DNA of 40,968 bases from a virus (Duplodnaviria; Heunggongvirae; Uroviricota; Caudoviricetes). The stretch spans positions 1 to 40,968 of the IMG/VR virus record IMGVR_UViG_2579778871_000004; one strand, written 5' to 3'. A program made the position numbers and the translations under genes. The notes below the pieces were generated by a model. It ran no database searches. It was not told the DNA's origin and worked only from the letters and a program-made list of their open reading frames with translations. Positions 10,081 to 37,905 of the stretch are shown piece by piece. Numbering within the stretch: the stretch's first letter is position 1; each line of letters begins with the position of its first letter.

Positions 10081-10449
10081 TTAGTCAGCGAAGGTTAAGA
10101 CGAGAATTACCTTAATGATGTCTGCTACAACAGACACGGCCATAGATAAACCAAAGACGATCCAAGCCATAGAGATGTCTTCACTACCATCGTATAGAGT
10201 TCCGTAATCACTGGTGTAAGGTGTAAATGTCGCGCCTTGATACAATAGGTATAAGCTTGATCCATAGAGGATAAATGCAGATATCCCTTGTATTGCTATG
10301 ACCACTAGAATCATGAAACGAGCTGTTCTATGCGCCCAAGCCTGGCTTATTTTTTCTGATAGAGATTTCGCAATAAAAGCATGCGCTAATCCGTAAATTG
10401 TCGAGATTGCCAACATCCCAAAAAAGCTTGCTATAGCGGTTCCAACCAT
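10081..10449 (-). CDS. Small integral membrane protein co-transcribed with the repressor (rex-position gene)
   Basis: About 122 aa from ATG at 10449 with RBS AAGGGG; three predicted TM helices; starts 17 nt after the cI stop. Confidence 0.55.
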   Translation of the reverse strand: MVGTAIASFFGMLAISTIYGLAHAFIAKSLSEKISQAWAHRTARFMILVVIAIQGISAFILYGSSLYLLYQGATFTPYTSDYGTLYDGSEDISMAWIVFGLSMAVSVVADIIKVILVLTFAD

Positions 10450-10466
10450 AAGCGCCCCTTGCGTGA

Positions 10467-11183
10467 TCAAACCAGCCTTAGTTTTGTCTCAATTGCAACG
10501 CCTATAATCTTGCAGTTTCCATTGATTGGCACGAGAGGCCATGCAGGGTTAAGTCCCTTGAGGTATTTATTTCCGCCGTCGATTATCAGCTTCTTGAATG
10601 TTGCTTCGTTAGAGTCAGAAAGTTTTGCTATGACCAAGCTGCCGTTGATCGCCTCCCTTCCGGTATCGAAAAGAACGAATGTTCCCTCTGGAATGCTTAA
10701 CCCAACCGGTGCCGTCATTGAATCACCTTCCACTTTAAGCCAGAACGCATTACCTTGAATATGCGCGTCAGACTCAAGCCAAACATCTATGTCTTTAATG
10801 GTGTATGGTTCGCATGCTTCACACCACGAGCCAGCCTGGATACTGCTTAACACCGGATACCTCTTTCCTGCTCTGTATTCCCCTGCATACCTTACGTTGG
10901 CATCGCTCTTAAGGCTTTCTGCCTGTTCTGCAACCTTGGCAGAAATTGACTGGCTAAAATCAGCAATTGAGACTTGCAACAATCGTGCAAAACCAGATGC
11001 AACCTCAACGTTTAGCGCGTTTCTGCCATTAAGATAATGCCCTACCGCTCCTTGGGTGATACCCAGTTCATCAGCGATTGAGTATTGGGTTATTCCCAAT
11101 TCTTTCTTTTTTGACTCATACAAAGCCTTAAGCCGCTTAGCGTCTTCGAGCTGTTCTGTCGTCAGTGATTTTTTATTTTCCAT
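10467..11183 (-). CDS. cI: CI-type prophage repressor (HTH plus LexA-like S24 autopeptidase domain)
   Basis: 238 aa; N-terminus resembles lambda cI (LTQEQLEDARRLKA..), C-terminus has FWLKVEGDSMTAP and ATFKKLI..NPAWP motifs as in lambda cI and P22 c2. Confidence 0.9.
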   Translation of the reverse strand: MENKKSLTTEQLEDAKRLKALYESKKKELGITQYSIADELGITQGAVGHYLNGRNALNVEVASGFARLLQVSIADFSQSISAKVAEQAESLKSDANVRYAGEYRAGKRYPVLSSIQAGSWCEACEPYTIKDIDVWLESDAHIQGNAFWLKVEGDSMTAPVGLSIPEGTFVLFDTGREAINGSLVIAKLSDSNEATFKKLIIDGGNKYLKGLNPAWPLVPINGNCKIIGVAIETKLRLV

Positions 11184-11217
11184 AGCTTAATTCTAATAGC
11201 TAAGGTACTTAAACTAA

Positions 11218-11260
11218 AAATACCCTGAGTATTGATTGCTTTGAATACCTGTAGTATTCT
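11218..11260. promoter_or_regulatory. OR/pR: operators AAATACCCTGAGTATTG (11218-11234) and GAATACCTGTAGTATTC (11243-11259); pR -35 TTGATT, -10 TATTCT
   Basis: 17-bp palindromes of the same consensus as OL, between the divergent cI and cro starts. Confidence 0.55.
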
Positions 11261-11289
11261 TTGTTCATGGTTAATAACGGAGAGTGCAT

Positions 11290-11484
11290 ATGATTCGAAT
11301 GACACTTGCCGATTACGCCAAAATCCATGGACAGGCTAAAGCAGCCAGTGACTTTGGTGTAATCCAGTGCGCTATCAGCAAGGCCATTCTGGCAGGCCGT
11401 AACATCATGGTTACGGTAAAGCCTGATGGCAGTGTGATTGGAGAGGAAGTTCGTCCTTTCCCAAGCAACAAGAAAAACAAATAG
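11290..11484 (+). CDS. cro: Cro repressor (lambda Cro family)
   Basis: [49 protein letters not shown] resembles lambda Cro throughout; GGAG RBS. Confidence 0.8.
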
Positions 11485-19726: not shown

Positions 19727-20186
19727 TCAACGTAAGGCGTTCCTCGATATGCTGGCGTGGTCAGAGGGAACTGATAACGGACGGCAGAAAACCAGAAATC
19801 ATGGTTATGACGTCATTGTAGGCGGAGAGCTATTCACTGATTACTCCGATCATCCTCGCAAACTTGTCACGCTAAACCCAAAACTCAAATCAACAGCCGC
19901 CGGACGTTACCAGCTTCTTTCCCGTTGGTGGGATGCCTATCGTAAGCAGCTTGGCCTGAAAGATTTTTCTCCAGAAAGTCAGGATGCTGTAGCGCTGCAG
20001 CAGATTAAAGAGCGTGGCGCTTTGCCGATGATTGATCGCGGTGATATCCGTCAGGCTATCGACCGTTGCAGCAATATATGGGCTTCACTGCCGGGCGCTG
20101 GTTATGGTCAGTTCGAGCATAAGGCTGACAGTCTGATTGCAAAATTCAAAGAAGCGGGTGGAACGGTCAGAGAGATTGAGGTATGA
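19710..20186 (+). CDS. R: Endolysin R (lytic transglycosylase)
   Basis: 158 aa, recognised as lambda R. Confidence 0.9.
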
Positions 20187-20650
20187 GCAGAGTAACCGCG
20201 ATTATCTCCGCTCTGGTTATCTGCATCATCGTCTGCCTGTCATGGGCTGTTAATCATTACCGTGATAACGCCATCGCCTACAAAGAACAGCGTGATAAAA
20301 AAGTCAGTGAGCTGAAGCAGGCGACCGCCACCATTACTGACATGCAGCAACGCCAGCGTGCTGCTGATGCACTCGATGCTAAATACACGAAGGAGTTAGC
20401 TGATGCGAAAGCTGAAAATGATGCTCTTCGGCGCAAGCTTGATAATGGTGGCAGGGTGCTCGTCAAAGGAAAATGCCCTGTGCCATCCTCAGCCGAAACC
20501 TCCCGCACCTCCGGCATGGGCAATGATGCCACCGTCGAACTCTCTCCAGTTGCTGGACGAAACGTTCTCAGTATCAGATCCGGAATCATCAGCGACCAAA
20601 CATCACTGAGAGCGCTGCAGGAATACATCAACACGCAGTGCCTGAAATGA
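20183..20650 (+). CDS. Rz: i-spanin Rz
   Basis: 155 aa, N-terminal TM then periplasmic coiled coil; lambda Rz-like. Confidence 0.85.
20403..20609 (+). CDS. Rz1: o-spanin Rz1 (lipoprotein embedded in the +1 frame of Rz)
   Basis: [21 protein letters not shown] lipobox, Pro-rich mature region. Confidence 0.75.
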
Positions 20651-20889: not shown

Positions 20890-21174
20890 GTCATTACAAA
20901 GCCTATCTACGGGTGGGCTTGATAATGAAACCGGAATTTATTCTGGGCCACCAGTTAACGGCAGTACCACGAAACAACCCAAGCTAGTAAGTGGGGAAAT
21001 AACACTGGCAGTCACTGAAAGATGAACCTCCAGCCTTATGGCAAAAAAGATTCTTTGTGGTGGCGGACTGATGGAAAGACATCGGATAGAATCAAGCAGT
21101 GGCTAGGGTAGCTCCCGAAAAGCGGACTCGTCACCGCCTGCCACTGAATCTATGGCGAACAACAAGACGAGGTT

Positions 21175-33178: not shown

Positions 33179-34585
33179 ATGGCTACTTGGCAAGGAACAA
33201 ACGGCGGATTGTTGGCTGGTATCGGTGGCGTCAACTCAAACGCTCCGAGCGTAAATGACATCGGCAATACGCTTCAGCTTATCAGGCAGAACAATGATAT
33301 TGAGCGTTCAGGCGCTAACAATGTTGGGCTGACTGCTTTGCAAGGCCTTTCAGGTATTGCGGGGGTGTTTCAGCAGGAAAAGCAGGCTCAGCAGCAGAAA
33401 GAATTTCAGCAGGCATACGCTAATGCTTATGCGTCTGGTGATCGCGGTGCTTTGCGTCAGTTGGCTACTCAATATCCAGACCAGATTGAATCCGTTCGTA
33501 AAGGCATGGGATTCATTGATGAAGAGCAGCGTAATTCTATCGGCACCTTAGCAGCTGGCGCACGCCTTGCGGCCTCGTCTCCAGAAGCAATGCAATCATG
33601 GCTGCAAAACAACGCCAAGGAACTGGCGCGCGTCGGCGTTGACCCTAACAACGTTGCTCAGATGTATCAGCAGAATCCTTCAGGATTTGGTGAGTTTGTT
33701 GATCACCTCGGAATGGCTGCTCTTGGTCCGATTGATTACTTCAATGTTCAGGACAAGATGGCTGGTCGTGAGATTGACAGAGGCAGACTGGCAGAGACAA
33801 TCCGCAGCAATCAGGCTGGAGAAGCACTTCAGGCGAGAGGGCAAAACCTTTCCTATCAGTCAGCAATGACTGGGCACAATATCGCAGCACAACGCTTGGC
33901 TCTGGATCAGCAAGAGTTCGGGTTTAAGATGCAGCAAGCGCAGGAAAAGGCTCAGCAGTTGATTAGCGAAGCACCTAAGCTGTCAGTAAACATGGAAAAA
34001 GGCATCGAGACGGCTGTAAACAATGCTACAGCATCATCAAACTCAGCCAATTCTATGAGTGCGCTTGCTCAACAGTTCAGAGCAGAAAAACCAACGACAG
34101 GTTTGTTCGGTAACGCACAGAACATGTTCGCAAAACTTACCGGAAGCGATACAACATTGCGTGATTTGCGCATTCGCCAAAATGCCCTTGTTAACAGTCA
34201 GGTTCTTAAATTCCTACCTCCCGGCCCAGCAACGGATAAAGACGTTGAGATCGTTCGACAGGGTGCGCCAACTGACATGGATAACCCTGAGACGGTCGCA
34301 AGATGGCTTGATGCAATGGCAAACCTTGAGCGACGAAACGCGCAGTTTAATGAGTTTAAAGCCGAGTGGATGAGCGCGAATGGCAACCCTGGACAATCGC
34401 GTAATGGCGGTCAGATATTGGGGTTGGATGTTAAAAAAGGTGAATCATTGGGGAGTGCCGTTAAGCGGTATATGTCAATGAATACTGACGCAGCGCCAGC
34501 ACAAGATTCGACACCTTCAGGAGAACCACGGAATCAGGTTGGATCATATACCTCAAAATCAGGCATTCAATTTACGGTGGAATGA
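33179..34585 (+). CDS. Ejection protein (P22 gp20 type)
   Basis: 468 aa, order and size as P22 gp20. Confidence 0.8.
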
Positions 34586-36423
34586 TGAAAGTAACTGCAA
34601 ACGGTAAGACATTTACCTTTCCTGATGGTACGAGCACCGAAGATATTGGCACCGCCATTGATGAGTATTTTGCTGGTCAGGCTGTTCAGCAACAAACAGT
34701 TAATCAGGCCAATAATGCACCAACACGGGACGAACCATCATTGATGCAACAAGCTGGCGATTGGCTCACTGGTGGTCAAAGTGCAGGGCAAATTGCAGAA
34801 CAGGCTGGTCGTGGTCTGGTAAACATACCATTTGACGTATTGCAGGGTGGCGCAAGTCTGATTAATGCAATCAGTCAGGGGCTTGGTGGGCCAAAAGTTT
34901 TGGATGATGTTTATCGTCCAGTAGACAAACCGACAGACCCATACGCACAAGCCGGTGAAACAATTGGTGGGTATTTAGTTCCAGGAGTTGGAACGGCAGG
35001 AAGCATGGCTATTGGCTCACTGGCAGAGGCAGCAAATCAGAAAGGCGATTTCGCACAAAATGCAGCTAAAAATGCCGGAGTTAACCTTGCCGCTCAGGGT
35101 GTTCTTTCCGCAGCAGCAAAGGGAATAGGGCGTGGAATAACGGCTATAAAAGGTGATATTGCGCCAGAAGTGGCGAAGAAAATTGCCACATCAGAATCGA
35201 TGGGCGTGACACCAATGACATCTGATGTTATCCCGCCGAAAAATGCTTTCACTCGCGGCCTTACTCAGGATGCCGAGGGGGCTTTGCTCGGGACGGGCTC
35301 AAAGCGAGCAGAGCAATATGCAACGCGTAGTAAGCTGGTAAGCAATTATTTTGACCGTTTTGGTGAGTACAACCCTGATGATGTGGTGAAATCTCTGACC
35401 ACCACGTTAAGGGGGCGGAAGGATGCCGCTGGCGCTGTTATCAATGACGTCACCAATAAAATGGGTAATGCCGCAGTTGATACCACAAATACCATGAATG
35501 CTCTGAATACAGCGATCGCAAGACAGGAACGGCTTGGGACTTCTGCCAATCAAAGCCTGCTTACATCCTTGCGTAACCTACGTGAAGAATTAGCAAACCC
35601 TGCAACTGATTTGGATGTTACGTTTGATCTCTTGCGTCAGCACAGAACAGCATTTAGATCTAATGTTCAGGGAGATGCTATGGTCTTCCCCAACCAGGCA
35701 AAAGCAGCTACCAATATGGTAGAGAATGCAATGTCAAAAGACCTTCGTAACGCAGTTGCTAAAAACCTCGGTGCATCAGACGCAGCAAAATACCTTAAAG
35801 CAAATTCCGATTATGCAAACGTTTATAATAAGGTGCTTAATAAAAACATTGCTAACAAGCTCAACAAGGCAAGCAGTGAAGCCAGTCCTGAACTTATAAA
35901 TACCGTTGTATTAAGCAGAAAACCATCTGACGTGAAACGAATCTGGAGCGCACTGGATGATAAAGGGAAAGATGCTATGCGTGCAGCTTACGTCAGCAAA
36001 ATAGCGGAAAAGGCCGGTGACTCTCCAGCCAAGTTCATCACTGAAGTTAATAAGCTGAAATCTCAGTCAGGCGGTGAAATTTACAACACTATTTTTTCTG
36101 GAAAGCACATGAAAGAGCTTGATTCTCTTCATGAAGTTCTACAGCAAACAGCAAGGTCAGACACCGCAAATGTAGTAACTCAGACGGGGCAATCGCAAGC
36201 CAACAGGATAAGGACGATTGGCGCAACTGCGACTCTTGGCATATCAATGGGTCTTGAGGCTGGTTTCGGTGCAATGATGCGCTTGTATGAGTCTAAAGCA
36301 GCAAGAAACATGCTTCTCCGCCTTGCAAACGTTAAGCCCGGAACTCCGGCATATGAGCGAGCGTTAAATCAGGCTGCTAACGCCGTTCGCCCTCTCCTAA
36401 CTAACGAAGCTACCAGGCAGTAG
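34582..36423 (+). CDS. Ejection protein (P22 gp16 type)
   Basis: 613 aa, order and size as P22 gp16. Confidence 0.8.
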
Positions 36424-36442: not shown

Positions 36443-36772
36443 CTATTTAATTCTCTTTTCAATGGCTGCAATTATTGCTTTTCCTGATGTTTCAGGAGAT
36501 TTTGTAGCCATATAAGACGAAAAAATCATGTCGGTCATTCTTTCATAACTTACTATTTCCCACTTAGCCAATGCATGGGACAGTTTGTAGTTGTCATCAG
36601 TTAGTGCCCTTATGGAATTTTTTAAGTGTTTATTCTCTTCTGTTAATCGCGCAATTTTTGTATCAATTTCATGTGAGCGATCTAATTCCTTAACCTGTTT
36701 CTTGAGGGCAGCTAACCCTGCATATAGTACGCAACAGGATATCCCAAGAGCGAGTACGACTATTTCTAACAC
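36443..36772 (-). CDS. Bitopic inner-membrane protein with coiled coil (109 aa), unknown function
   Basis: N-terminal TM LEIVVLALGISCCVLYAGLAAL followed by heptad-repeat region; opposite strand to the structural operon. Confidence 0.5.
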   Translation of the reverse strand: MLEIVVLALGISCCVLYAGLAALKKQVKELDRSHEIDTKIARLTEENKHLKNSIRALTDDNYKLSHALAKWEIVSYERMTDMIFSSYMATKSPETSGKAIIAAIEKRIK

Positions 36773-36890
36773 ACCAACCTCCTTAGTTTTTCGCAGGATA
36801 CCATGAAAAAAGTAAACATCTTTTGCCTACTTCACATTTGAATGGTTTGTCATTAGGATGTTTCCGGTTTTTTCAAATATGGAAATTGAT

Positions 36891-37310
36891 ATGAAGAGGA
36901 TTATCGGCGTTGTTGCTGGCGCTATATTGTTATCTGGGTGCGCAACTATTGTTGGTGACGAAACACAGCTCGTGCAAGTGAACAGCAATCCTTCCGGTGC
37001 GAGCTTTAAAGTAAAAGACGAATCAGGCGTGATTGTTGCGCAAGGCAAGACCCCGCAAGGAGTAACTCTTGCCAAGTCAGATGGGAGTTATTTTGGCAAA
37101 AAGAGCTACCAGATCACTATGGAAAAGGATGGGTACGAACCAGTTACCCTGCCAATCAAAGCCAATGCTAATGGTTGGTATATTGGTGGAAACCTTGTGT
37201 TTGGTGGGTTAATTGGTTGGCTTGCTGTAGATCCTTTTAATGGTGGGATGTATACCTTGAAGCCAAAAGAGGCAAACGCATCTCTTATACCATCAACAAA
37301 GCAAGACTAA
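36891..37310 (+). CDS. Outer-membrane-type lipoprotein, possible PEGA-like beta-sandwich domain (139 aa)
   Basis: Signal peptide with lipobox LLSGC; VQVNSNPSGASFKVKDESGVIVAQGKTP..DGYEP resembles a PEGA domain. Confidence 0.55.
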   Translation: MKRIIGVVAGAILLSGCATIVGDETQLVQVNSNPSGASFKVKDESGVIVAQGKTPQGVTLAKSDGSYFGKKSYQITMEKDGYEPVTLPIKANANGWYIGGNLVFGGLIGWLAVDPFNGGMYTLKPKEANASLIPSTKQD

Positions 37311-37318
37311 TAAATAGG

Positions 37319-37342
37319 ACCCACCTTCAGGTGGGTTTTTTG
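37319..37342. terminator. Bidirectional hairpin terminator between the lipoprotein gene and mnt
   Basis: ACCCACC-ttca-GGTGGGT followed by TTTTTT on plus strand; mnt stop codon lies in the loop. Confidence 0.55.
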
Positions 37343-37578
37343 TACAAATCCTTCAGCGTATCAAACACCATCTTCTTAACAAGCTCTGACTGCTCATCAG
37401 CGAGTCGTTCTGCATCGTCGCGATATCCAGTCACAGGCGATGGTTTTGATAGAGCATCTTGGACGATTTGTAACAACTCGGAGTTCATTGATCTCCCATT
37501 CGCCTCCGCCCTGAATTTTAATTTCTCCCTTACTCCCATAGGCATACGGAAGTTAAAGTGCGGATCATCTCTAGCCAT
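37327..37578 (-). CDS. mnt: Mnt repressor (ribbon-helix-helix), P22 immI
   Basis: 83 aa MARDDPHFNFRMPMGVREKLKFRAEANGRSMNSELLQIV.. recognised as P22 Mnt. Confidence 0.85.
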   Translation of the reverse strand: MARDDPHFNFRMPMGVREKLKFRAEANGRSMNSELLQIVQDALSKPSPVTGYRDDAERLADEQSELVKKMVFDTLKDLYKKPT

Positions 37579-37600
37579 GCCATCACTCCAAGTTAGTGTA

Positions 37601-37652
37601 TTGACATGATAGAAGCACTCTACTATATTCTCAATAGGTCCACGGTGGACCT
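37601..37652. promoter_or_regulatory. immI control region: Pant with Arc operator (37606-37626) and Mnt operator AGGTCCACGGTGGACCT (37636-37652)
   Basis: TTGACA...ATGATAGAAGCACTCTACTATATTC and the 17-bp perfect palindrome are the P22 Oarc/Omnt sequences as recalled. Confidence 0.65.
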
Positions 37653-37668
37653 ATGTTGTGAGGTGAAT

Positions 37669-37830
37669 ATGAAAGGAATGAGCAAGATGCCGCAGTTCAA
37701 TTTGCGGTGGCCTAAAGAAGTATTGGATTTGGTACGCAAGGTGGCGGAAGAGAATGGTCGGTCTGTTAACTCTGAGATTTATCAGAGAGTAATGGAAAGC
37801 TTTAAGAAGGAAGGGCGCATTGGCGCGTAA
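37669..37830 (+). CDS. arc: Arc repressor (ribbon-helix-helix), P22 immI
   Basis: 53 aa [53 protein letters not shown], recognised as P22 Arc. Confidence 0.85.
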
Positions 37831-37834
37831 AGTT

Positions 37835-37905
37835 GAAGCCCCAACTGCGGGAACAGTCAGGGCTTCGGTTGTCAGTAAATCCGTGGAGAAAAACCAACAT
37901 GAATA
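37835..37905 (-). ncRNA. Possible sar antisense RNA locus (antisense to the ant ribosome-binding region)
   Basis: By analogy to P22 immI; inverted repeat GAAGCCC...GGGCTTC in the arc-ant spacer; boundaries not determined. Confidence 0.3.

Follow-up and report, generated by a model that had tools for sequence, protein, structure and literature searches.

Two envelope genes in the sieA slot of a P22-like prophage are probably separately exchangeable morons rather than one paired system

INTRODUCTION

P22-like phages are known to concentrate prophage-expressed genes between genes 16 and 9, a hot spot in which, to our knowledge, studies have dealt with sieA and immI alone. Morons, in the definition of Juhala and Hendrix, carry their own promoter and terminator and are present or absent among related phages. 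A spanin pair combines a type II inner-membrane protein (N-in/C-out), the i-spanin, whose coiled coil lies in the periplasm, with a very small lipoprotein of the outer membrane, the o-spanin; both are encoded in the lysis cassette in one orientation, with the two genes embedded, overlapped, or adjacent.

In P22, the 85 bp upstream of sieA (putative PsieA) suffice for its function, exclusion (PMC10883804), and gene 15 of epsilon34 was already recognized in 2008 to resemble many bacterial genes, with no function assigned (PMC2629481). Here we describe the corresponding locus in a window of 40,968 nucleotides, the whole stretch of viral DNA analyzed (Caudoviricetes; IMG/VR record IMGVR_UViG_2579778871_000004). 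A first-pass annotation, made from the letters of the DNA, had placed an inner-membrane coiled-coil protein and an outer-membrane lipoprotein in the sieA slot and had proposed that they form one envelope system. Our analysis leads us to favor, with a probability of about 0.7, the reading that the two genes are separately exchangeable prophage morons that adjoin in one recombinant P22-like E. coli prophage lineage, and not a two-component system.

RESULTS

The variable "ant moron" region is bordered on its left by the homologue of gene 16 (34582..36423, plus strand; phrog_770 DNA transfer protein, E 2e-278), which encodes the last ejection (DNA transfer) protein and is named a P22-gp16 family ejection protein by PGAP in near-identical prophages. 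The right border is formed by the immI control genes (37327..37898), namely mnt (37327-37578, minus strand; Pfam Arc and Repressor_Mnt, E 7.8e-30 and 7.3e-19), arc (plus strand, ending at 37830; Pfam Arc, E 2.7e-30), and the antisense RNA sar (37831-37898, minus strand; Rfam sar, 95.6 bits), with ant also on this flank. Between these borders we found the two divergent open reading frames (ORFs) described earlier, one of 109 amino acids (36443..36772, minus strand) and one encoding a 139-amino-acid lipoprotein (36891..37310, plus strand), separated by an intergenic gap of 118 bp (36773-36890). Both are real genes rather than chance ORFs, since they match phrog_8100 (E 1.4e-69) and phrog_6823 (E 8.1e-86), respectively, very strongly; both families are already catalogued as PHROGs and are uncharacterized. 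Similarity to P22 picks up again exactly at a strong rho-independent terminator hairpin (ACCCACC-TTCA-GGTGGGT followed by a T run; 37319..37342), seen in the sequence and in a minus-strand scan.

The assignment to the sieA slot proved correct to the nucleotide for the minus-strand gene. Its ORF replaces the sieA ORF exactly, in the slot and on the strand of P22 sieA, directly after gene 16 and antisense to the late operon, and translation would begin at a GTG codon 5 nt past a strong Shine-Dalgarno sequence, AAGGAGG (36778-36784). Alignment of upstream sequences delimits a conserved 5' untranslated region (UTR; 36773..36820, minus strand), which we call the adaptor: 44 of its 48 nucleotides match the proximal part of the P22 sieA upstream region, the Shine-Dalgarno sequence and GTG are shared, and beyond these 48 nucleotides the rest of the 85-bp P22 region is not. 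Over the proximal 33 nt, almost no variation is seen among the sequences that precede P22 sieA, the 109-amino-acid genes of ST160, SI8, and EC11, hkcB of epsilon34, and the gene for a 122-amino-acid protein in O111. A possible extended -10 element, TGgTATCCT (36795-36803), lies within the adaptor. Judged by this alignment, the gene has taken the place of the sieA ORF as an alternative allele behind a shared 5' UTR, Shine-Dalgarno sequence, and GTG. By analogy with SieA it is probably made in the lysogen, which is plausible given that its upstream sequence corresponds to the proximal portion of that of sieA. The gene also has the location of the SieA family, which in P22-like prophages is found between genes 16 and 9; as a SieA homologue the protein was rejected (hhalign probability, 0.3%; a single transmembrane helix; FxRYPxEAxxFNK absent), and the two proteins fall into different PHROGs, P22 SieA into phrog_7745 and the 109-amino-acid protein into phrog_8100. 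GC content is 37% in the region of the gene versus 45 to 50% around it.

The first-pass description of an N-terminal transmembrane helix plus coiled coil was borne out. There is one hydrophobic segment (residues 4 to 22; Kyte-Doolittle score, 2.43); heptads with L43, L50, L57, and L64 at position d and I40, N47, I54, and N61 at position a form a four-heptad leucine zipper at about residues 36 to 68; and the AlphaFold model of the monomer is one long helix (residues 2 to 90) followed by a short one (residues 97 to 108; pLDDT, 85). A profile search of the PDB matched leucine zippers only. The C-terminal domain of about 45 amino acids is strongly conserved, with an invariant C terminus in the homologue alignment, and dN/dS is 0.17 to 0.26 there versus 0.6 to 2.1 in the transmembrane and zipper part, both from small counts. 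In 12 of 12 homologues the transmembrane helix has no lysine or arginine before it and two to five after it, and because of these flanking charges (positive-inside rule) the protein is predicted to be N-out/C-in with a cytoplasmic zipper, although simple charge counts are ambiguous even for Rz, a known N-in/C-out protein.

Scans against Pfam, NCBIfam, PHROG, and PADLOC returned for this protein only the PHROG of unknown function and coiled-coil noise, and HMMER with its C-terminal 50 amino acids against 1.84 billion representatives gave six matches, of which about four are real, with no fusions and no other architectures. The gene is found only in P22-like prophages of Salmonella, E. coli, and Klebsiella. 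Subthreshold matches to proteins with a transmembrane helix plus zipper (DivIC, 17.5 bits; ZapB) might point to some other membrane-anchored prophage protein, such as a toxin-like effector, one that acts in abortive infection, or a protein that modulates division or another inner-membrane process of the host, and the fast-evolving transmembrane and zipper half beside a constrained C-terminal domain, as well as the lack of similarity to SieA, would fit this. However, the DivIC matches, like those to Rz-like PHROGs (E 0.015 and 0.064, far behind the top match, phrog_8100), are below all cutoffs and reflect only a transmembrane helix and a coiled coil; the predicted topology is opposite to that of FtsB/DivIC; and the exact replacement of sieA behind the same expression signals and the confinement to P22-like prophages also argue against such a role, which we consider unlikely. 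We instead favor a role in exclusion, in which the product would be anchored in the inner membrane by its single N-terminal helix and, as flanking charges and heptad pattern predict, present a parallel dimeric zipper and the conserved 45-amino-acid domain on the cytoplasmic face. From its position and architecture, the protein would most likely hinder incoming P22-like phage at the inner membrane, either by blocking, in the manner of SieA, the delivery of DNA through the gp7/gp20/gp16 conduit or by sensing that conduit.

The lipoprotein begins MKRIIGVVAGAILLSGC, with a signal peptide that carries the lipobox LLSGC and the features of a signal peptidase II substrate: MKR as a positively charged n-region, IIGVVAGAIL as hydrophobic core, and LSGC, which agrees with the lipobox consensus L-[AS]-[GA]-C. 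Both elements that had been recognized at first sight, the lipobox and a PEGA-like domain, were recovered: 33 homologues all retain Cys17 and the ATIxG that follows it, and residues 25 to 93 form a transthyretin/PEGA-like beta-sandwich, which is followed by an invariant Gly-rich hydrophobic segment (residues 94 to 121; NGWYIGGN..FGGLIGW..VDPFNGGMY). Sorting to the outer membrane is predicted because of the alanine at position +2 (E. coli Lol avoidance rule). The mature protein has about 122 amino acids, and its folded domain starts only about 7 residues past the lipid anchor, a tether that therefore does not reach across the periplasm. Three names were tried and rejected: the match to the PEGA domain (PF08308) is below Pfam's gathering threshold; that to Cor (phrog_1119; E 0.0039) covers the signal peptide only, residues 12 to 31 of the 150-amino-acid ORF; and YceK/DUF1375, the name given by JGI to two homologues, aligns over 15 columns around the lipobox in hhalign (probability, 41%), with a YceK query that itself matched DUF1375 in Pfam at 33 bits. 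A profile search of the PDB gave no matches for the lipoprotein, PADLOC had none for either protein, and a literature search by accession numbers and locus tags found no mention. Apart from these weak matches, Pfam, NCBIfam, and PHROG yielded for the lipoprotein its PHROG of unknown function only.

Homologues 68 to 71% identical to the lipoprotein stand alone between tail chaperone and tape measure genes in E. coli and Proteus siphophage prophages, others adjoin tail genes K/I/J in further enterobacterial prophages, and nonphage chromosomal copies (51 to 60% identity) occur in Halomonas, Pasteurellaceae, Gallionellaceae, and others, with the same invariant residues in phage and chromosomal copies. 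Judged by sequence relationships, the lipoprotein is shown to have been captured from a widespread proteobacterial chromosomal family, and phages have made this capture at least three times, in different slots. Across 207 species-level loci in Proteobacteria we found no conserved neighbor and in none a homologue of the 109-amino-acid protein or HkcB; an operon partner sought in 80 bacterial loci was likewise not conserved.

A promoter-like site, TTCACA-17 nt-TAGGAT (36831..36859, plus strand; 9 of 12 consensus matches in a scan), precedes the lipoprotein gene, and the terminator at 37319-37342, which overlaps the 3' end of mnt and is annotated as a terminator in epsilon34, closes the cassette. 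Siphophage copies each have their own hairpin and T run at the same place. The lipoprotein gene is variably present and has promoter-like hexamers, and a terminator in every context, as expected of a moron; the 109-amino-acid gene has its conserved upstream adaptor and a slot with alternative ORFs. Insulation from the late operon, which had been claimed on grounds of strand or terminator, holds in part: the terminator follows the lipoprotein gene, but our scan showed no convincing one between gene 16 and this co-oriented gene, with only a weak hairpin at 36480-36499.

An identical lipoprotein (GALLYPH_14; 100% identity) is encoded by Gally, a prophage of E. coli LF82, which keeps both promoter hexamers (TTCACG/TAAGAT) and their 17-nt spacing, with a diverged spacer and an upstream sequence that differs from that of the window. 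In published RNA-seq data, GALLYPH_14 reaches log2 fpkm values of 9.4 to 11.0 in DMEM and macrophages and 4.8 to 6.2 in overnight LB, compared with 2.3 to 4.2 for the Gally injection genes and 8.9 to 12.0 for the C2 repressor (PMC9928086, S1 Table). These data show that the identical lipoprotein is transcribed from a repressed prophage at about the level of the repressor while the injection genes are silent, which supports the earlier suggestion of lysogen expression for the lipoprotein. The authors of that study did not score GALLYPH_14 as a moron, as it lay 3.3-fold over background in overnight LB, against a cutoff of 5-fold (PMC9928086).

Expression from the Gally prophage and predicted outer-membrane sorting, together with its presence in the two best-known exclusion-moron slots, the sieA/ant-moron region and the slot of HK97 gp15 between tail chaperone and tape measure, raise the possibility that the lipoprotein is a specific outer-membrane superinfection-exclusion factor, Cor/Llp-like, that masks or inactivates a component needed by incoming phages. 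We regard this idea as tentative, as the similarity to Cor is confined to the signal peptide, PADLOC gave no match, and a protein that is 68 to 80% identical across podophages and siphophages of different hosts and 51 to 60% identical to chromosomal copies is more readily explained by a general role in the envelope than by one tied to a particular receptor. We rather propose a self-contained promoter-gene-terminator cassette whose product probably resides in the inner leaflet of the outer membrane, where the 7-residue tether would hold the beta-sandwich against the membrane and the Gly-rich segment may dip into the bilayer or mediate oligomerization. Because the invariant residues are common to phage and chromosomal copies, the ancestral outer-membrane function may be retained, and we therefore propose that the lipoprotein is a lysogenic-conversion factor that alters the host envelope, with phage exclusion or host fitness as the possible benefit.

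The distribution of the two genes bears directly on whether they form a pair. Among sequenced phages, 13 records have the 109-amino-acid protein, 4 have the lipoprotein, and none has both. Among 5,426 complete E. coli genomes, the 109-amino-acid gene is present in 17 and the lipoprotein gene in 126, and the two stand side by side in 10, all of which belong to one near-identical prophage lineage (at least 99.4% identity over 1.4 kb). As 10 of 17 compares with a rough independence estimate of about 6, a mild association in E. coli is conceivable. Elsewhere the lipoprotein gene neighbors hkcB (epsilon34), a gene for another lipoprotein (Gally, 720R6), or that for the 122-amino-acid protein (O111), and the 109-amino-acid gene neighbors a gene for a P63C protein, orf64, or nothing.

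One lysogen-expressed system spanning the envelope and blocking DNA entry or a receptor would be in line with two adjacent, divergent genes that share a 118-bp control region and both encode envelope proteins, with the mild E. coli association, and with the two divergent genes at the Gally site, which rise and fall together in RNA-seq. However, the minus-strand partner in Gally encodes an unrelated lipoprotein, the 17 phage records show no co-occurrence, the 109-amino-acid gene is missing from 116 of the 126 E. coli genomes that have the lipoprotein, each gene has several alternative partners, and siphophage slots and chromosomes hold the lipoprotein by itself; moreover, the zipper is predicted to be cytoplasmic, and the tether of the lipoprotein has only 7 residues. 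We therefore consider a paired system very improbable.

A second spanin pair or accessory lysis pair, which the first-pass annotation had already argued against, is less probable still and can practically be dismissed. A transmembrane helix and coiled coil alongside a lipoprotein, and the weak Rz-like matches, are reminiscent of spanins, but the phage has a bona fide Rz (20183-20650) with embedded Rz1 (20403-20609) in its lysis cassette, and the two genes lie 16 kb away from it and are divergent. In addition, the mature lipoprotein is too large and contains a folded domain, the predicted topology of the 109-amino-acid protein is opposite to that of an i-spanin, and the lipoprotein gene is transcribed in the repressed Gally prophage.

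DISCUSSION

Our results favor two separately exchangeable morons and do not support the two-component system that had chiefly drawn attention to this locus. What emerges instead is an invariant adaptor behind which several ORFs, that of sieA among them, can alternate, and the slot thereby supplies candidate exclusion genes (those for the 109-amino-acid protein, HkcB, and the Gally lipoprotein) that can be assayed directly as in Leavitt et al. 2024. The lipoprotein belongs to a conserved proteobacterial family, and in an E. coli lysogen associated with Crohn's disease it is strongly transcribed, both in cell-culture medium and within macrophages. A phenotype of either gene, if any, would hold moderate interest for the biology of prophages and their hosts.

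Our results also lead us to speculate, more doubtfully, that unrelated inner-membrane proteins (SieA, HkcB, and the 109-amino-acid protein) serve as a series of "alleles" for the sieA slot, all behind one adaptor. The 109-amino-acid protein would then be a new exclusion protein that stops P22-like DNA delivery from the cytoplasmic face by means of a dimeric zipper and a 45-amino-acid effector domain, and the lipoprotein would represent a widespread proteobacterial outer-membrane family, repeatedly recruited by podophages and siphophages for lysogenic conversion or exclusion and induced in host-like conditions.

Among described systems, Cor, Llp, and Bor resemble the lipoprotein in being small, prophage-expressed lipoproteins encoded by morons in late or tail regions, and they modify the outer membrane of the lysogen; they have no sequence relation to it and differ in fold. 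HK97 gp15 (Cumby et al. 2012; PMC3594210) derives from YebO, and the lipoprotein likewise appears to have been captured from a bacterial chromosomal family and is prophage expressed, with lipoprotein homologues also occupying the gp15 slot between tail chaperone and tape measure. In contrast to the predicted outer-membrane beta-sandwich of the lipoprotein, gp15 is a small inner-membrane protein, and the sequences are unrelated.

P22 SieA and the 109-amino-acid protein share slot, strand, proximal upstream region, Shine-Dalgarno sequence, and GTG; both are encoded by a P22-like prophage and are small proteins of the inner membrane, and in both the conserved part is predicted on the cytoplasmic side. 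SieA has three or four transmembrane helices and the FxRYPxEAxxFNK motif, whereas the 109-amino-acid protein has one helix and a leucine zipper and lacks the motif. HkcB (HK620/epsilon34 gp14; phrog_5962; 107 amino acids) has the same slot, the same adaptor, about the same size, and an equal charge distribution around the transmembrane helix, and its transmembrane and zipper half aligns with that of the 109-amino-acid family (hhalign probability, 93.9%; E 1.6e-7; 50 columns; 42% identity, in low-complexity sequence), in line with a PHROG match to the HkcB family at E 0.011. The C-terminal halves are unrelated and cannot be aligned. Homology between the two is probable but not certain, because the alignment consists of low-complexity transmembrane and coiled-coil sequence. 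Epsilon34 gene 15 (97.8% identity) and GALLYPH_14, both members of phrog_6823, encode the same lipoprotein as the window in the same place upstream of mnt, and only the minus-strand neighbor differs.

Results

The window is an E. coli prophage that is P22-like (Lederbergvirus-type), and ten complete E. coli genomes harbor prophages that are 99.4 to 99.6% identical to it over this region, integrated beside yfdC and a tRNA-Arg gene. Behind three ejection genes (phrog_598, phrog_917, and phrog_770) lie, in this order, a 109-aa ORF (36443-36772, minus strand), a 118-bp gap, a 139-aa lipoprotein ORF (36891-37310, plus strand), a hairpin terminator, and then mnt, arc, the sar RNA, ant, and the tailspike gene. 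The anatomy given by the first-pass annotation, two divergent envelope ORFs 118 bp apart between these flanking genes, is correct. Each ORF has a full-length match to a PHROG family of unknown function (phrog_8100, 1.4e-69, for the 109-aa ORF and phrog_6823, 8.1e-86, for the lipoprotein), and the exact sequence of each is found on at least 1,000 public contigs, always labeled hypothetical or "lipoprotein." The 109-aa gene and the intergenic region (36450-36900) have a G+C content of 37%, compared with 45 to 50% in gene 16 and in the lipoprotein and immI genes, a composition that fits a foreign origin. Elsewhere in the window, between the lysis cassette and the terminase genes, an int-alpA RNA (Rfam RF02996) matches at 21096-21158 on the plus strand (45.1 bits; gathering score, 35.8).

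The earlier placement of the 109-aa gene in the sieA slot is borne out by P22, where sieA lies directly after gene 16 on the same strand. The minus-strand sequence immediately 5' of the 109-aa start, TCATGGTATCCTGC..CAAAACTAAGGAGGTTGGtGTG, also precedes P22 sieA, the 109-aa family members in ST160, SI8, and E. coli EC11, epsilon34 hkcB, and a 122-aa ORF of E. coli O111 that is unrelated, so this slot takes different ORFs behind one conserved adaptor. P22 and the window agree at 44 of the 48 proximal nucleotides, and ST160 matches nearly all of the 85-bp stretch upstream of P22 sieA that includes the putative PsieA and is enough for exclusion in P22 (PMC10883804). The invariant block of 33 to 48 nt (5' UTR, Shine-Dalgarno sequence, and start codon; 36773-36820, minus strand) recurs in comparison loci, numbered here in their own coordinates (L005, 2821-2851; L001, 2506-2535; L002, 2473-2502; L003, 2966-2995; L018 and L020, 2832-2861; L019, 2886-2915). 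It contains TGgTATCCT, a possible extended -10 element, and looks like a fixed recombination joint combined with an expression adaptor.

The 109-aa gene starts with GTG, 5 nt downstream of AAGGAGG, and its product has a single hydrophobic helix (residues 4 to 22), which in the AlphaFold model (pLDDT 85) is part of a continuous helix from residue 2 to residue 90, followed by a short C-terminal helix. Its matches among solved structures are leucine zippers only, and the family keeps a heptad register with L43, L50, L57, and L64 at position d and I40, N47, I54, and N61 at position a. According to the GCN4 rule, Asn at position a points to a parallel dimer, which suggests that this zipper is one. 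Across 12 homologues the transmembrane helix and zipper vary, and the last 45 residues are near-invariant (KWEIxSYExMTDMIFxSYxATxSPETSG..II..IE.R); dN/dS against Salmonella alleles is 0.17 to 0.26 in the C-terminal domain and 0.6 to 2.1 upstream, from small counts. Since all 12 have no K/R before the transmembrane helix and two to five just after it, the positive-inside rule predicts that the zipper and conserved domain are cytoplasmic. The family is tiny, with 14 clusters among 5.8 billion proteins and, with the C-terminal domain alone as the query, about four real representatives among 1.84 billion, and all of its members come from Salmonella, E. coli, or Klebsiella.

The lipoprotein signal peptide ends in LLSGC, with Cys17 and the following ATIxG residues invariant; the Ala at +2 predicts an outer-membrane destination. 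Its beta-sandwich begins about 7 residues past the lipid anchor, and the domain must therefore sit against the membrane. The most conserved part of the family, residues 94 to 121 (NGWYIGGN, GGLIGW, and VDPFNGGMY), is hydrophobic, glycine-rich, and of low confidence in the structure model, and no curated family covers it. A mechanical ORF list gives a 150-aa product from an ATG at 36858. Because this ATG falls within the predicted -10 hexamer of an upstream promoter-like sequence (TTCACA-17-TAGGAT, 36831-36859) and every homologue begins at the MK[KR] position, translation probably starts at 36891. Two homologues are labeled YceK by JGI, a name that was rejected, as it rests on the lipobox region only. 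Chromosomal homologues outside the Enterobacterales (P0107, P0109, P0115, P0119, and P0120 in alignment A1; loci L059, L065, and L090) are about 170 aa long and have an additional conserved C-terminal tail, I[VM]LLQDVPxxLxxxM, absent from phage-borne forms.

A rho-independent terminator follows the lipoprotein gene in every context examined, with hairpins of different sequence in the siphophage copies. Homologues that are 68 to 71% identical occupy, on their own, the slot between tail chaperone and tape measure genes in HK97-like E. coli and Proteus prophages, the same slot in which HK97 gene 15 resides, which was the first moron to be described and acts in superinfection exclusion (PMC3594210), and 77%-identical homologues lie between tail genes K/I and J of other enterobacterial prophages. 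The HK97-like E. coli prophages with the lipoprotein in this slot (L007 and L009 to L011) have a second outer-membrane moron in the same tail operon, a porin gene (Porin_1/Porin_4; 10261-11424) inserted between M and L. A one-genome-per-species scan yielded 207 loci, 51 to 80% identical, in Enterobacterales, Pasteurellaceae, Halomonadaceae, Shewanella, Nitrosomonas, Gallionellaceae, Mariprofundus, and a Syntrophaceae genome; many of the 80 loci kept have ordinary chromosomal surroundings, and no neighbor is conserved across these 80. Given such homologues across the Proteobacteria, the phage gene seems to have been acquired from a conserved family of bacterial lipoproteins, and with a detectable copy in only 126 of 5,426 complete genomes, it appears to be phage-borne in E. 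coli.

Expression in the lysogen, which the first-pass annotation had proposed, is upheld by published RNA-seq for an identical lipoprotein in another prophage, Gally (log2 fpkm; Table S1 in Misson et al. 2023, PMC9928086). GALLYPH_14 of prophage Gally in E. coli LF82, whose product is 100% identical to the window's lipoprotein, reaches 6.2 and 4.8 in overnight LB, 9.8 to 10.5 in DMEM, and 11.0 and 9.4 to 9.5 after 1 h and 6 h in macrophages, while the three injection genes just upstream stay at 2.3 to 4.2 and the C2 repressor ranges from 8.9 to 12.0. GALLYPH_14 is thus active in the repressed prophage, with transcription that does not depend on the late operon and runs at about the level of the repressor. 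Gally keeps both promoter hexamers and their spacing, with a diverged spacer. That Gally was said to carry no morons stems from a cut-off applied to the LB sample only, where GALLYPH_14 stood 3.3-fold above background (PMC9928086). Its divergent neighbor is an unrelated lipoprotein (phrog_6067) with the same expression pattern; at this site (L016, 1881-2920; LF82_138/LF82_139) both genes reach 8 to 11 in DMEM and macrophages, with the flanking injection genes at background, and Gally mnt rises about 40-fold in macrophages (PMC9928086).

Discussion

Both genes are best read as prophage morons, candidate exclusion or conversion genes, and not as a new two-component system. The first-pass annotation had joined them into one envelope system, and the two do lie side by side in 10 complete E. 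coli genomes (the 109-aa gene is present in 17 and the lipoprotein in 126), but these 10 share at least 99.4% identity over 1.4 kb and are hence one prophage lineage. In the phage collection the 109-aa protein is found in 13 records, all Salmonella P22-like and no others, the lipoprotein in 4, and both in none. Elsewhere, what follows the 109-aa gene is a P63C-domain gene (EC11 and MB50), orf64 (ST160), or the tailspike gene directly (SI8), the lipoprotein gene comes after hkcB (epsilon34), the phrog_6067 lipoprotein (Gally and 720R6), or the 122-aa ORF (O111), and about 90 siphophage-prophage and bacterial loci carrying the lipoprotein contain no homologue of the 109-aa protein or HkcB. This separate occurrence, together with the predicted cytoplasmic zipper and the short lipoprotein tether, argues against an envelope-spanning complex of the two proteins. 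The P63C-domain protein (322 to 349 aa) fills the plus-strand slot in two E. coli prophages (L018, 2948-3997; L020, 2987-3955), and MB50 also has an HNH endonuclease gene in place of arc/ant.

The region behaves as two cassette slots with fixed joints between them: on the minus strand, a slot bounded by the gene 16 end and the adaptor (36773-36820), and on the plus strand, a slot bounded by the adaptor and the mnt terminator at 37319. A 2008 paper described the "ant moron" variable region and epsilon34 gene 15 (PMC2629481), and SieA diversity was described in 2024. In the available literature we found no recognition of sieA, hkcB, and the 109-aa ORF as alternatives behind one adaptor, no description of the lipoprotein's recurrence in three phage slots and across the Proteobacteria, and no statement that published RNA-seq already shows it to be prophage-expressed.

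We propose that the lipoprotein is a prophage-expressed outer-membrane lipoprotein that would keep the function of its chromosomal relatives and alter the lysogen envelope. The slots in which it is found point to phage exclusion; that it is conserved outside phage contexts points to a general role in the envelope, which we rate slightly higher. [quoted passage not shown] Its predicted orientation is opposite to that of an i-spanin. The HkcB family aligns with the 109-aa family over the transmembrane-plus-zipper half (probability 93.9%, 50 columns) but has an unrelated C-terminal domain. SieA is without sequence similarity to the 109-aa family, and the 109-aa protein would be its functional analogue, not its homologue.
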